31,802 nt of DNA. It comes from an archaeon. GTDB lineage: Archaea; EX4484-52; B79-G9. Position 1 is the first letter of the stretch; each line of letters starts with the position of its first letter. The position numbers are program-made. The DNA lies in NCBI GenBank assembly GCA_043813875.1, contig JBDRKP010000012.1, forward strand, positions 1 through 31,802, in the 5' to 3' direction. Below, in pieces: positions 12,001 to 15,000 of this stretch.

Positions 12001-15000
12001 ACAAGAAACTCACAAAAAGAAAAAATAGATAAAAAATGATTAAATGGACTCAATCGCATTTTTACATATGGGAAAAGACCATTGTCCGCGCTGCGGTACA
12101 ATCGGTGACAAAAAAAAAGAGAACACGATAGAATACCTGAAATGCCCATTTTGCGAAACAGAATACACAAACGAAATAATATTAAAACTCGGAGAAAAAG
12201 AAATCACACTTGAAAACAACTAGAACAGCAATGAAATGATATTCAACACACGGTGATACATTTGAACGTAAGAAGCCAACGAGATATTGCAAAAAGAATA
12301 CTGAAAGTGGGCAGAAACAAAGTATGGATAGACCCACAAAGAACAAACGAAGTCCAGGAATCCATAACAAAAAACGACATACGAAAGCTCATCATCGATG
12401 GCGCTATATCAAAAAAAGCAATCATCGGCACAAGCAAATCAAGATCAAGAATAATAAAAGAACAGAAAAAAAAAGGCCGCATGCAGGGATATGGTAAAAG
12501 AAAAGGAACGAAAACCGCAAGAACACCGTCAAAAACAATGTGGATAACAAAAATCCGGTCACTAAGAAAAGAACTAAAAGACCTCAAGACAAAAAACAAG
12601 ATAACAACAAGGGAATACAGGCACCTATACACAAAATCCGGTGCAGGCGTCTTCAAAGACAAATCATATTTACACCTATACATCAAAAAAATGAAAGAAT
12701 GAACGTAAAGAAATAACGTGATACTATGGACGCAAGATACAGGCTGAAATTCAAAAAAAGAAGAGAAGGCAAAACAAATTATAAAAAAAGATACAACCTC
12801 CTGCTCTCAAAAGAGCCGCGCATAGTTGTAAGAATCACAAACAAACAGATAATAGCAGAGACAATAGAATACAGCACCCAAAAAGGAGACAAGACAGTCG
12901 CATACGCATCATCCAACGATCTCACAGCATATGGTTGGACACAAGCCAAAAAAAACACATCTGCCGCATACTTGACTGGCCTTCTCTGTGCAAAAAGAGC
13001 CACTGAAAAAAAGATTAAAAGCGGCATCGCGGACTTCGGACTCCACACAGTCCACGCAAAAGGACGCCTCTTTGCAGCGATAAAAGGCGCACTCGATGGC
13101 GGCTTAAAAATACCACACGATGATGCAGTATTTCCTGATGAAAAAAGACTTTCAGGAACTCATTTAAAAACAGATGCAACAAAAGAATTTGAAAAAGTAA
13201 AAGAAAACATACTCAAAGCAAAACAAGAAAAAAAAGACAAAAAAAAAGAGACTACAACAAAAACAACGCCGAAAACAAAGAAAAAGGATAAGGAATAAGA
13301 GTGAAAAACATGGAAAATCAAACCGGAAGTTGGACACCAAAAACGAGCCTTGGTAAAAAAGTGATGAGCGGAGAAATCACATCAATAGACGAAATATTCA
13401 AAAAAAATTATCTCATAAAAGAATCCGAAATCATCGACTTCCTTGTACCCAATATTGAAGATGAAATCATATTCATTGGCGGGATGCCAGGCAAAGGTGG
13501 CGGCAAAAAAAGAACCCCCCTCAGAATCACAACCAGGATGCATCAATCAGGCAGAAAAAGAACCCTGCATGCACTCGTTGCGGTAGGCAACAGAAACGGC
13601 CTCTTAGGCATCGGTTATGCCACAGGAAAAGACGCAGTCAGCGCAATCACAAAAGCGACAACACAGGCAAAACTCAACATAATACCAATCAGACGCGGTT
13701 GCGGTTCCTGGGAATGTGAATGCAAAGGCCCGCACTCAATACCATTCAAGACAGAAGGAAAAGTAGGATCAGTAAAAGCATTGCTTATCCCTGCCCCTCG
13801 TGGAATCGACCTGTGCGTAGCTCCCGAAATCAAGAAAATAATCAAACTGGCAGGCATCCGGGACCTTTGGGCAAAAACAAGCGGCCAGACAGACACACGA
13901 ATGAACTTCATAATGGCAAATTTCAATGCCTTAAAAAACCTTAACAAAATAAAAACAACACCACATGCAATAGAAGTGACAGGCGCTGTAGACGGTCCTC
14001 TCTCGACAATACCAATCCCACAAGAAATAGAAGACATCAAAACAAAGAAAGAAAAAACAGTAGAAAAGATAATCAAAGAAATAATACCTGCATTAGGCAC
14101 AGAAAACGACGATTAGAAGGTTACGATTATGAAAATGTATGCCGTGATAAGACTAAGAGGTACCGCAAATATAAGAAAAGAGATAATGGACACATTAGAC
14201 ATCCTGCGCTTAAACAAGCCGAACCACTGTGTGATTGTACCGGAAACTGACATTTACAAAGGCATGCTTCAGAAAGCAAAAGACTACATCACATGGGGCG
14301 AAATCGATGACAAAACTCTGGAAGAATTAGTCACAAAACGCGCAAAAATCTCCCAGGCAAAAAAAGTAGACCCAAAAAACATAAAGACAATAATCGAAGG
14401 AATCAAAAAAGGAAAACTTAAAGAGACAGGAATAAAACCAGTATTCCAACTCACACCGCCAAAAAAAGGCTTCGAGAAAAAAGGAATCAAAAAGACATAC
14501 AAGCAAGGTGGATCACTCGGCTACCGTGAAAGCAACATAAACATATTGCTACAAAAAATGATATAAAAAAGAAACCCGTGATATAATGACAGTCAACCGA
14601 AGAAAAAAATCCAACACACGCCGAGGCTCAAGAACTCATGGCTGGGGCAGCCCTAAAAAACACCGTGGTTCTGGATCAAGAGGAGGCGTAGGAAACGCAG
14701 GCTCCGGCAAAAAAGGTCAGCAAAAAATGACCACAAAAAACCTGACAGGCGAACGCATCGGCAAATACGGATTCAAAAGACCGGCTGTAACCATAAATAA
14801 TCCAAAAACAATAAATATAGATGACCTAGAAAAAAATATAGACAACTACATCACAAACGGAAACGCAAAAAAAAGCAATAATATCACAGAAATAGACACG
14901 ACAAAACTCGGTTACGACAAAATACTTGGACGGGGTAAACTGACATCTAAACTCAAGATAACATCTAAACAATTCTCAAAGACAGCAATAGAAAAAATAA

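Follow-up and report, generated by a model that had tools for sequence, protein, structure and literature searches.

The window, a 31,802-nucleotide stretch of archaeal DNA (contig JBDRKP010000012.1 of assembly GCA_043813875.1), carries between the genes for ribosomal proteins L32e and L19e an additional small gene, here called ZR, that encodes a real, single-domain C4 zinc-ribbon protein (50–70 aa across the family) under selection. ZR homologues are present in 159 of 313 tested genomes belonging to three phylum-level groups of the small-celled DPANN archaea, and 69 of the 78 loci inspected in these groups have the order L6-L32e-ZR-L19e. DPANN organisms have shed most of their accessory genes. 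As an extra conserved gene inside a top-conserved operon in this many genomes, ZR is a strong candidate for a component of the ribosome, or a factor in its biogenesis, that is specific to this lineage. Our preferred reading, offered tentatively, is that ZR is a large-subunit-linked factor predicted to dock through a flexible C-terminal tail; the putative link to the ribosome or to translation is suggested by its gene context.

The ZR gene, its neighbours and its fold

ZR occupies positions 12044..12223 of the forward strand and runs from an ATG through 59 codons to a TAG stop. Its two CxxC motifs, CPRC at residues 14–17 and CPFC at residues 34–37, form the first knuckle C14-P-R-C17-G18 (12083..12097, forward strand) and the second knuckle C34-P-F-C37 (12143..12154, forward strand). 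C14, P15, C17, G18, C34 and C37 are invariant both in the 27 distinct sequences of the window's phylum and in a set of 72 sequences, and N58 and N59 are likewise invariant in the 27. Gene callers differ on the start, one of them giving a 51-aa version that begins at residue 9. Two observations favour the ATG at 12044 over the internal one at 12068: residues 1–8 are conserved (F6 is present in at least 90% of sequences), and one orthologue (L009) lacks a methionine at position 9. Purifying selection is evident from dN/dS values of 0.00–0.32 in 31 pairwise comparisons, and the conservation of ZR is more than chance.

The C-terminal Asn58-Asn59 (AAC AAC, 12215..12220, forward strand) lies immediately 5′ of the stop codon, and the same Asn-Asn end is found in all 31 orthologues of the window's phylum. 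In these orthologues the two codons are AAC or AAT and the stop is TAA, TAG or TGA; the constraint therefore acts on the protein, and a constraint at the nucleotide level is ruled out by the same variation. The Asn-Asn end is also found in 16 of 20 Nanohaloarchaeota sequences, and in 2 of 27 from a third phylum-level group, where Trp-Asn or Trp-Thr often stands instead. An invariant free Asn-Asn end is unusual and provides a testable candidate binding motif.

The protein is acidic, as the first-pass annotation had stated, with a pI of 5.24 and a net charge of −3. Among the 31 orthologues of the phylum, 30 have a pI of 4.3–6.7, and net charge there has a median of −3. For the inter-knuckle loop the median charge is +1 in the window's phylum; in Nanohaloarchaeota the loop is strongly acidic (median −4). 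ZR thus lacks the basic, RNA-binding character of ribosomal proteins, and to our knowledge an acidic ZR is unlike the known small zinc-ribbon ribosomal proteins.

Upstream of ZR is rpl32e (11423..12028, forward strand; PF01655, E 5.7e-31), whose ATG at 11423 is an assumed start within a longest ORF from 11357; in its product a Lys/Glu-rich stretch of about 80 aa extends beyond the L32e domain as a tail, and the L6 gene can be found further upstream. The L32e stop codon (12026–12028) is separated from ZR by a 15-nt spacer (12029..12043, forward strand) with a weak TGAT remnant of a ribosome-binding site. Across the 31 orthologues of the phylum the length of this spacer lies between −4 and 63 nt (twelve have exactly 9 nt), and most spacers contain GGTG/GTGAT-like motifs complementary to the 16S 3′ end GGATCACCTCCT. 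Downstream, rpl19e (12262..12702, forward strand; PF01280 and PF25476) likely starts at TTG 12262, 4 nt after a GGTGAT at 12252–12257. The GTG at 12253 chosen by the ORF finder falls inside that motif, and the corresponding site in orthologues reads GTGAT, 4 nt, then ATG. Such spacing suggests that ZR is co-transcribed and tightly coupled with rpl32e and rpl19e and expressed as part of the operon. Five DNA sequencing runs contain parts of the stretch (shares of at most 0.20), and no RNA runs were listed. Few gene orders in Archaea are as strongly conserved as L6-L32e-L19e-L18 (PMC10833476).

In the AlphaFold2 model both knuckles sit on a ribbon of three strands (22–26, 29–33 and 46–48), with a pLDDT of 87–92 over residues 11–50, block means of 60–67 over the last ten residues and an overall mean of 78–82. 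The two CxxC knuckles on a three-stranded antiparallel sheet identify the fold class of the modelled protein as a C4 zinc ribbon. Structural matches are informative on fold class only: Foldseek against the PDB returned nothing at E ≤ 0.001, the best being Rpb9, NrdR and L37ae ribbons at E of at least 0.63, and a wide VIA-align search gave at best Rieske-type knuckles at Z 3.7. HVO_0758 is among the weak fold matches, and the ESM Atlas yielded scores of 0.93 with few features in common and no family. Of the weak matches to solved structures, those with functional relevance are ribbons of the ribosome and of RNA polymerase; the highest-ranking ribosomal chains are S27ae (E 0.0015) and L37ae (E 0.014).

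No curated family claims the protein, in agreement with the first-pass annotation. Neither Pfam nor NCBIfam gave a family over its cut-off, and the best Pfam match, TackOD1, reached E 0.0011 (19 bits against a cut-off of 32). The 25 of 27 Pfam matches at E ≤ 10 that were listed for ZR include no rubredoxin family, no LysW/ArgW family (PF21344), no L37ae (eL43; PF01780) and no S27ae (eS31; PF01599), and S27ae (PRK00432) is absent from the NCBIfam matches as well. PF03604/PRK00398 (Rpo12, RNA polymerase subunit P) and PF07754 (the HVO_2753 family) were not listed for ZR either. PRK00432 appears in three of 23 relatives (E 0.002–0.004, 17–18 bits against a cut-off of 54). PF21344 gave a match under its cut-off for one relative (E 3.3e-4, 20.7 bits against 27).

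Fourteen small zinc-ribbon families can be found elsewhere in the genome over Pfam cut-offs (L44e, S27e, S27ae, L37ae, L37e, S26e, S14, L34e, Nop10, Spt4, Rpp21, TFS, an HVO_2753 homologue and Trm112), and ZR belongs to none of them. The S27ae gene is on contig C42, and the L37ae gene (E 1.8e-27) has a 44-aa Rpo12 candidate, under cut-offs, beside it. A displaced copy of S27ae, L37ae, L37e, L44e, S27e, Nop10, Spt4 or Rpp21 is accordingly ruled out, each being found elsewhere over its cut-off; this rejection leaves out RpoP and L40e, for which the genome's candidates score under the cut-offs. An all-length profile search gave no convincing ZR fusions, the long matches carrying multiple zinc-finger stretches. 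We found no description of ZR in the literature searched, which included PMC10833476 and PMC6393860.

Distribution and history of the insertion

Within the window's phylum, ZR was found in 31 of 42 genomes, as 30 strong full-length matches and one diverged copy (G016) in the same slot. A family profile gives one match per genome at E ≤ 1e-6 in all 31. The order L6-L32e-ZR-L19e holds in 31 of 31 loci; L18 follows in 30 of them, and in the other (L024) the contig ends inside L19e. The first-pass annotation had described a real, single-copy, conserved gene fixed between rpl32e and rpl19e, and that description holds at these counts. It also put most genomes at least 90% complete among the carriers, which is correct, although the count is 9 of 10 (G036 being the sole one without ZR) and not 8 of 10. 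A word-based protein search returned three close relatives besides the window's own product, the same number as before.

Of the 11 genomes lacking ZR, previously described as having it absent or too diverged to find, six have L32e immediately next to L19e. In three more (G019–G021), the operon is split at the L32e/L19e junction and neither side carries ZR. In G018 the L32e side is seen without ZR and L19e was not found, while in G017 a contig end cuts the junction. Because L32e abuts L19e in ZR-minus relatives, the absences are real, and the losses within the phylum concern family f6, family f4 and G022. The earlier label "phylum-wide" is therefore overstated in view of these abutting junctions and split operons. 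A profile built from the third group gave partial generic matches only (E of at least 4.7e-5) in the ZR-minus genomes of the window's phylum, and recovers the known G016 copy at E 3e-5.

The earlier proposal that ZR is specific to one phylum is not supported, since homologues occur in 20 of 70 Nanohaloarchaeota genomes and in 108 of 201 sampled genomes of the third, larger phylum-level group. All 20 Nanohaloarchaeota loci have ZR in the identical slot between L32e and L19e; of the 50 genomes lacking it, L32e abuts L19e in all 28 sampled. In the third group, where ZR is missing from 93 of the 201 genomes, 18 of 27 inspected loci lie between L32e and L19e and one is contig-cut with ZR directly upstream of L19e. 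A further five have ZR ending an L6-L32e-ZR fragment with L19e elsewhere, and three are away from any ribosomal genes. In a sample of 159 other archaeal genomes, all from outside the window's phylum, 153 lacked ZR.

Homology between the phyla is indicated by hhalign probabilities of 99.1–99.3%. Between the window and six Nanohaloarchaeota loci, ZR shares 32–38% identity, L32e 29–38%, L6 36–41%, L18 38–42% and L19e 44–54%, so that ZR diverges at its neighbours' pace. In the ZR tree the sequences of each phylum form one clade, and in the ribosomal-protein tree ZR-minus lineages are nested within ZR-plus ones. The one clade per phylum would fit old vertical inheritance followed by several losses. 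No columns of L6, L32e, L19e or L18 track ZR presence across independent losses, gap-dominated columns being the only ones flagged.

The insertion can be mapped on the DPANN phylogeny as a discrete character with three states (present, lost, operon split), and it is a possible evolutionary marker. The position of Nanohaloarchaeota is disputed. A single ancient insertion, if true, would give sequence-independent support for placing them with DPANN and not with Halobacteria. The fuller proposition, that ZR is a true, previously unseen large-subunit protein of a DPANN group and that its insertion is a single ancient rare genomic change common to Aenigmarchaeota-labelled lineages and Nanohaloarchaeota, strikes us as improbable.

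Possible functions of the protein

As a factor acting on the large ribosomal subunit, ZR could be a dispensable ribosomal protein at the periphery of the subunit, or it could help in assembly or escort. One surface for binding may come from the rigid zinc ribbon. The C-terminal tail, which is flexible and for the most part acidic, could dock like a short peptide into a pocket of some basic ribosomal partner; its free end is Asn-Asn in two of the phyla, whereas Trp-Asn or Trp-Thr is frequent in the third. The tail is conserved yet modelled with low confidence, as would be expected of a peptide that becomes ordered only on binding, which suggests this role for it. Residence inside a conserved ribosomal cluster, as in the archaeal ribosomal-protein class, applies to 69 of 78 loci, and were there no selection for co-expression, such retention would be difficult to account for. 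Complex prediction for L32e (residues 1–130), L19e and ZR with their own alignments returned no answer (score 0.00 in two runs made without controls) and weighs neither for nor against a complex.

Several observations count against a large-subunit role. The pI is acidic to neutral, and the gene has been lost repeatedly. Of the 27 third-group loci, three are non-ribosomal and five have no L19e adjacent; the third phylum has not retained the Asn-Asn end, and no columns of L6, L32e, L19e or L18 co-vary with ZR.

Some of the same features would suit a protein with a job unrelated to the ribosome, such as a metal or redox protein or a non-ribosomal adaptor, that rides in a highly expressed operon after insertion. 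An acidic, repeatedly lost protein with three of 27 third-phylum loci away from ribosomal genes would not be surprising in that case. The operon also houses other non-ribosomal genes (secY and an EMC3-like gene, for example). The top structural matches (Z < 4) are to metal knuckles of a generic kind, Rieske and rubredoxin-type folds among them, and one source labels a ZR relative "rubrerythrin". We nevertheless consider such a job rather unlikely, as 69 of 78 inspected loci in three phyla have ZR in this slot and the 25 of 27 Pfam matches listed contain no rubredoxin family.

Autoregulation is frequent in ribosomal-protein operons, and ZR could in principle be a nucleic-acid-binding regulator of the translation or transcription of its own operon. 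Zinc ribbons are frequent in RNA- and DNA-binding proteins, RNA-polymerase and TFIIB-type ribbons are among the weak profile matches, and the slightly positive inter-knuckle loop of the window's phylum would be compatible with binding. The net charge of ZR is negative, however, the loop is strongly acidic in Nanohaloarchaeota, no Rfam element was found in 11–13 kb of the window, and the operons of many relatives work without ZR. A regulatory function is consequently quite improbable.

With its zinc ribbon, acidic tail and conserved motif at the C-terminus, ZR recalls LysW in architecture. It could be imagined as a carrier or handle whose C-terminal residue an ATP-grasp enzyme of the RimK/LysX type, or an adenylating enzyme, would covalently charge or extend. 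Weak LysW matches were seen (PDB 5k2m_E at E 0.066, besides the sub-threshold PF21344 match in one relative), and the genome encodes a RimK-family protein (E 2.5e-45) with a second ATP-grasp gene adjoining. Yet RimK is present in 37 of 42 genomes, eight ZR-minus ones included, and no copy was found in two ZR-plus genomes, G031 (93% complete) and G007; on this phyletic pattern a link between RimK/LysX and ZR is rejected. The tail ends in Asn and not Glu, the gene context is ribosomal and not biosynthetic, and none of the 25 of 27 Pfam matches listed is to the LysW family, which leaves a carrier role highly improbable. A chance open frame in AT-rich DNA, to which shortness and the discordant start calls might point, is already refuted and has a vanishingly small probability given the low dN/dS, invariant cysteines, synonymous changes at the conserved Asn-Asn and homologues in 159 of 313 genomes.

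Comparison with known systems

ZR shares a single C4 ribbon and a similar size with eS31/S27ae, eL43/L37ae and other small archaeal ribosomal zinc ribbons. Like S27ae and L37ae, it has a beta strand before the first CPxCG knuckle and is encoded among ribosomal genes. It differs from these two in scoring far under their cut-offs, in coexisting with S27ae and L37ae genes elsewhere in the genome, in being acidic, in its conserved Asn-Asn end and in its location among large-subunit genes.

The LysW/ArgW amino-group carriers resemble ZR as zinc ribbons of about 55 aa with an acidic tail ending in a conserved motif. LysW ends in EDWGE, whereas ZR ends in Asn-Asn or Trp-Asn, has no biosynthetic gene cluster and does not co-vary with RimK/LysX-type ligases. 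The haloarchaeal micro-proteins HVO_2753 and HVO_0758 are, like ZR, stand-alone archaeal zinc-binding proteins of about 55–60 aa whose function is poorly known. HVO_2753 has two zinc pockets (four CxxC) where ZR has one (two CxxC), its homologue is a separate gene in the genome (PF07754, E 1.1e-14), and the position of ZR is fixed in the ribosomal operon.

A precedent for an acidic, non-ribosomal protein encoded in an archaeal ribosomal-protein cluster is aIF6, which binds the large subunit. The parallel extends to precedent only, as the two proteins are unrelated in fold and size; since aIF6 is both acidic and large-subunit-binding, acidity does not exclude a large-subunit role for ZR.

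The zinc-ribbon gene and its setting in the superoperon

The gene for the 59-aa zinc-ribbon protein (here ZR) occupies positions 12044–12223 on the forward strand (+), with an ATG start, 59 codons and a TAG stop. Its acidic product (pI 5.24, net charge −3) carries two knuckles, CPRC at residues 14–17 and CPFC at residues 34–37. Upstream lie the genes for L6 and, adjoining ZR, L32e (PF01655, E = 5.7e-31); L19e (PF01280 and PF25476) and then L18 follow downstream. The order L6-L32e-L19e-L18 is standard in archaea, including one DPANN genome, according to PMC10833476. The window is an archaeal ribosomal superoperon that comprises RtcB, L3 through L15, SecY, an EMC3-like gene, L34e, Cbf5, and S13 through RpoN. 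The ribosomal protein genes are followed by a consecutive run of RNA matches (24897–30081, +): 16S rRNA (24897–26365), a 115-nt tRNA match (26484–26598), 23S rRNA (26740–29668) and RNase P RNA (29726–30081). No 5S rRNA match is listed anywhere in the window. Three tRNA matches (19442–19563, 22446–22554 and 26484–26598) suggest introns, because they span 109–122 nt against a 71-position model.

For ZR, the ATG at 12044 is favoured over that at 12068, which was used by a gene caller, because residues 1–8 are conserved and one orthologue lacks that internal Met. For rpl19e, an ORF finder places the start at GTG 12253, inside a GGTGAT ribosome-binding motif (region 12252–12264); the real start is likely TTG 12262, where orthologues have ATG. 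L32e (11357–12028) bears a Lys/Glu-rich C-terminal extension of ~80 aa past the 108-position Pfam domain. Comparable tails are seen in relatives whether or not they carry ZR, and L18, L23 and S3 of the window are apparently extended too.

Conservation and loss within the phylum

Strong full-length ZR matches were found in 30 of the 42 genomes of the window's phylum, and a diverged copy directly upstream of L19e in G016 brings the total to 31, each with exactly one family-profile match at E ≤ 1e-6. The order L6-L32e-ZR-L19e is present at all 31 loci, with L18 next in 30 and the last (L024) cut by a contig end. The first-pass annotation had described a two-CxxC gene between rpl32e and rpl19e, present once in each of 31 genomes, and both statements held; its count of eight in ten for genomes ≥90% complete is corrected to nine in ten. 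The spacer between L32e and ZR ranges from −4 to 63 nt (9 nt in twelve loci), and most orthologues are preceded by GGTG/GTGAT motifs complementary to the 3′ end of the window's 16S rRNA (GGATCACCTCCT).

Pairwise dN/dS of ZR is 0.00–0.32 (31 comparisons, within two genera). Across 27 distinct sequences, C14, P15, C17, G18, C34, C37, N58 and N59 are invariant, and the last two residues are Asn-Asn in every one of the 31 orthologues. Either AAC or AAT encodes each Asn of this terminus, and TAA, TAG or TGA follows as the stop, which rules out a DNA-level constraint; the constraint is therefore on the peptide.

Absences within the phylum are real. L32e abuts or overlaps L19e directly, without ZR, in G022 and all five genomes of family f6. 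In three f4 genomes (G019–G021) the operon is split exactly at the L32e/L19e junction, with unrelated genes after L6-L32e and before L19e-L18 and no ZR on either side. The L32e side is the same in G018, where L19e was looked for and not found, and in G017 a contig break falls inside L32e.

A wider family among DPANN archaea

ZR had previously been regarded as specific to this phylum; the family proved wider. When 1.84 billion representative proteins were searched with a profile, 107 matched at E ≤ 0.001, ~45 of them proteins of 48–71 aa that match end to end, many with an NN end. Of these relatives, 23 were scanned, and none could be assigned to a Pfam or NCBIfam family. One relative came from a Nanohaloarchaeota MAG, and the order L6-L32e-ZR-L19e-L18 is found in six of six named Nanohaloarchaeota records (QJJ-5, QJJ-9, two Nanoanaerosalina, an Asbonarchaeaceae and one uncultured archaeon). 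Twenty of 70 Nanohaloarchaeota genomes hold a full-length match at E ≤ 1.5e-12, always in the same slot (20/20), ending in NN (16), NH (3) or HN (1). L32e abuts L19e in all 28 sampled Nanohaloarchaeota without ZR (gap −4 to 63 nt), and none has a CxxC ORF between the two genes.

Among the 159 other archaeal genomes sampled together with the phylum's 42 (201 relatives in all), six match ZR at E ≤ 1e-6, all in one other phylum-level group. In that group, the third and a larger one, ZR occurs in 108 of 201 sampled genomes, one copy each, and in 50 of the 92 that are ≥90% complete. Its distribution tracks families (16/17, 13/16, 12/12, 20/23, 8/8, 7/8 and 6/6 in some; 1/42, 0/12, 0/9 and 1/7 in others). 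Of 27 loci inspected, 18 have ZR between L32e and L19e, one is contig-cut with ZR directly upstream of L19e, five read L6-L32e-ZR followed by unrelated genes, and three have ZR elsewhere. These sequences are more diverged, typically beginning with Met-Phe and hydrophobic residues and carrying Phe-Gly-Ile/Val-Ile after the second knuckle; they end in Trp-Asn, Trp-Thr or Trp-Ser (12/27) or NN (2/27), and the last residue is Asn in 14/27. Their NCBI label, where present, is Aenigmarchaeota, a name given to members of both the window's 42-genome group and the larger one of G184; one close relative of the window's ZR is likewise named "Candidatus Aenigmarchaeota archaeon". Profile-profile comparison supports homology of the three groups at 99.1% and 99.3% probability. 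Two non-DPANN genomes, of Thermoplasmatales and Bathyarchaeia, yielded partial generic ribbon matches only (E ≥ 2.6e-4); in them L32e precedes L19e, and the hits to the two genes lie 11 and 124 nt apart.

Insertions seem to have occurred repeatedly at the L32e/L19e junction. At two Nanohaloarchaeota loci (L064:1176–1523 and L065:2125–2466; hosts an Asbonarchaeaceae and one uncultured archaeon), an extra ORF of 114–116 aa, with an N-terminal CxxC and no Pfam family at E ≤ 0.1, parts L32e from ZR, which thus stays beside L19e; where the cluster ends after ZR, as at the five third-group loci, it stays with L32e. The spc cluster is also broken at or next to this junction in separate lineages, as L6-L32e / L19e-L18 with ZR gone in f4 (L039–L041, L160, L162–L164) and as L6-L32e-ZR / unrelated genes in the third group (L205–L209).

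A tree of 78 ZR sequences gave one clade per phylum (FastTree, midpoint root). In a FastTree phylogeny of four concatenated neighbour proteins (88 loci, 581 columns), the 28 Nanohaloarchaeota without ZR form one clade nested in a grade of lineages with ZR, and f6 is nested among ZR-bearing lineages of the window's phylum; deep nodes are unreliable because one outgroup was placed within the ingroup. The pattern is most simply read as an old insertion followed by vertical inheritance and at least four losses, with interphylum transfer and subsequent homologous replacement a possible alternative.

Family identity and possible role

As noted in the first-pass annotation, no Pfam model matches ZR over its cut-off (best E 0.0011), and a word-based search retrieves three close relatives besides the window's own product. 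The best Pfam model is TackOD1, which scores 19 bits where 32 are required, and no NCBIfam model exceeds its cut-off either. AlphaFold2 predicts a three-stranded zinc ribbon with a mean pLDDT of 77.9 (27 sequences) or 81.9 (72 sequences), block means being highest over residues 11–50 (84–92) and 57–67 over the first and last ten residues. Foldseek and VIA-align found generic ribbons and metal knuckles only. Against solved chains all profile matches are weak: eukaryotic C2H2 zinc fingers rank highest, and behind them come S27ae at E 0.0015, a paralogue of RNA polymerase subunit M at E 0.003 and L37ae at E 0.014.

A survey of the genome gave 149 ORFs of 35–130 aa with two CxxC motifs, of which 23, judged gene-like by eye, were scanned with Pfam. 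L44e, S27e, S27ae, L37ae, L37e, S26e, S14, L34e, Nop10, Spt4, Rpp21, TFS, an HVO_2753 homologue and Trm112 are all encoded elsewhere over cut-off, and ZR as a displaced copy of one of these 14 known families was rejected. Putative RpoP and L40e genes fall below the Pfam cut-off. Another CxxC protein of 55 aa (C7:2097–2261, L058) matches no Pfam family at E ≤ 0.001.

Together, the data show that ZR is a translated, selected, single-copy zinc-ribbon protein whose gene has kept its place at the junction of L32e and L19e in three phylum-level groups. ZR diverges in step with its ribosomal neighbours: identity between the window and Nanohaloarchaeota is 32–38% for ZR, 29–38% for L32e and 44–54% for L19e. 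From the fixed junction, the selection and this divergence we tentatively infer, with somewhat less than even confidence, that ZR may be co-expressed with large-subunit proteins and act at the large subunit, where it would be a peripheral, dispensable ribosomal protein or an assembly or escort factor, its conserved but poorly modelled tail perhaps serving as a docking peptide. Several observations count against this role: ZR is acidic, it has been lost repeatedly, some loci of one family lie outside the operon, and no residue of L6, L32e, L19e or L18 was found to track its presence. The negative charge sits after the second knuckle in the window's phylum and in the inter-knuckle loop in Nanohaloarchaeota (median −4 in each).

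That ZR has a function unrelated to the ribosome and merely rides in the operon is somewhat less likely; that it is a nucleic-acid-binding regulator of the operon is improbable. We consider it very doubtful that ZR is a carrier of the LysW type, with an ATP-grasp ligase charging its C-terminus: the genome does encode a RimK-family pair, but RimK is present in 37 of the phylum's 42 genomes, eight of these 37 lack ZR, and no RimK was detected in ZR-bearing G031 or G007. The pair itself (C34:27401–29672) consists of two adjacent RimK-type genes with a 147-aa ORF; the family is kept in those 37 members of a phylum with reduced genomes. A chance ORF is excluded by conservation and has a negligible probability.

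The earlier observation is thus confirmed and enlarged, and its interpretation partly supported: a real, single-copy gene in a fixed slot stands, and restriction to one phylum does not. No description of ZR was found in the literature searched. PMC6393860 catalogues DPANN-specific uncharacterised clusters; none of those is described there as a ribosomal-operon zinc ribbon, and its supplementary files may bear on whether an orthologous cluster had been defined before. The small zinc-ribbon proteins of the ZR family are undescribed, and both their fixed position and their tail are unusual. ZR belongs to the zinc-ribbon fold class, and tests for membership in the S27ae, L37ae, RpoP, LysW and HVO_2753 families failed; it is best classed with the small zinc-ribbon proteins encoded among archaeal ribosomal genes.
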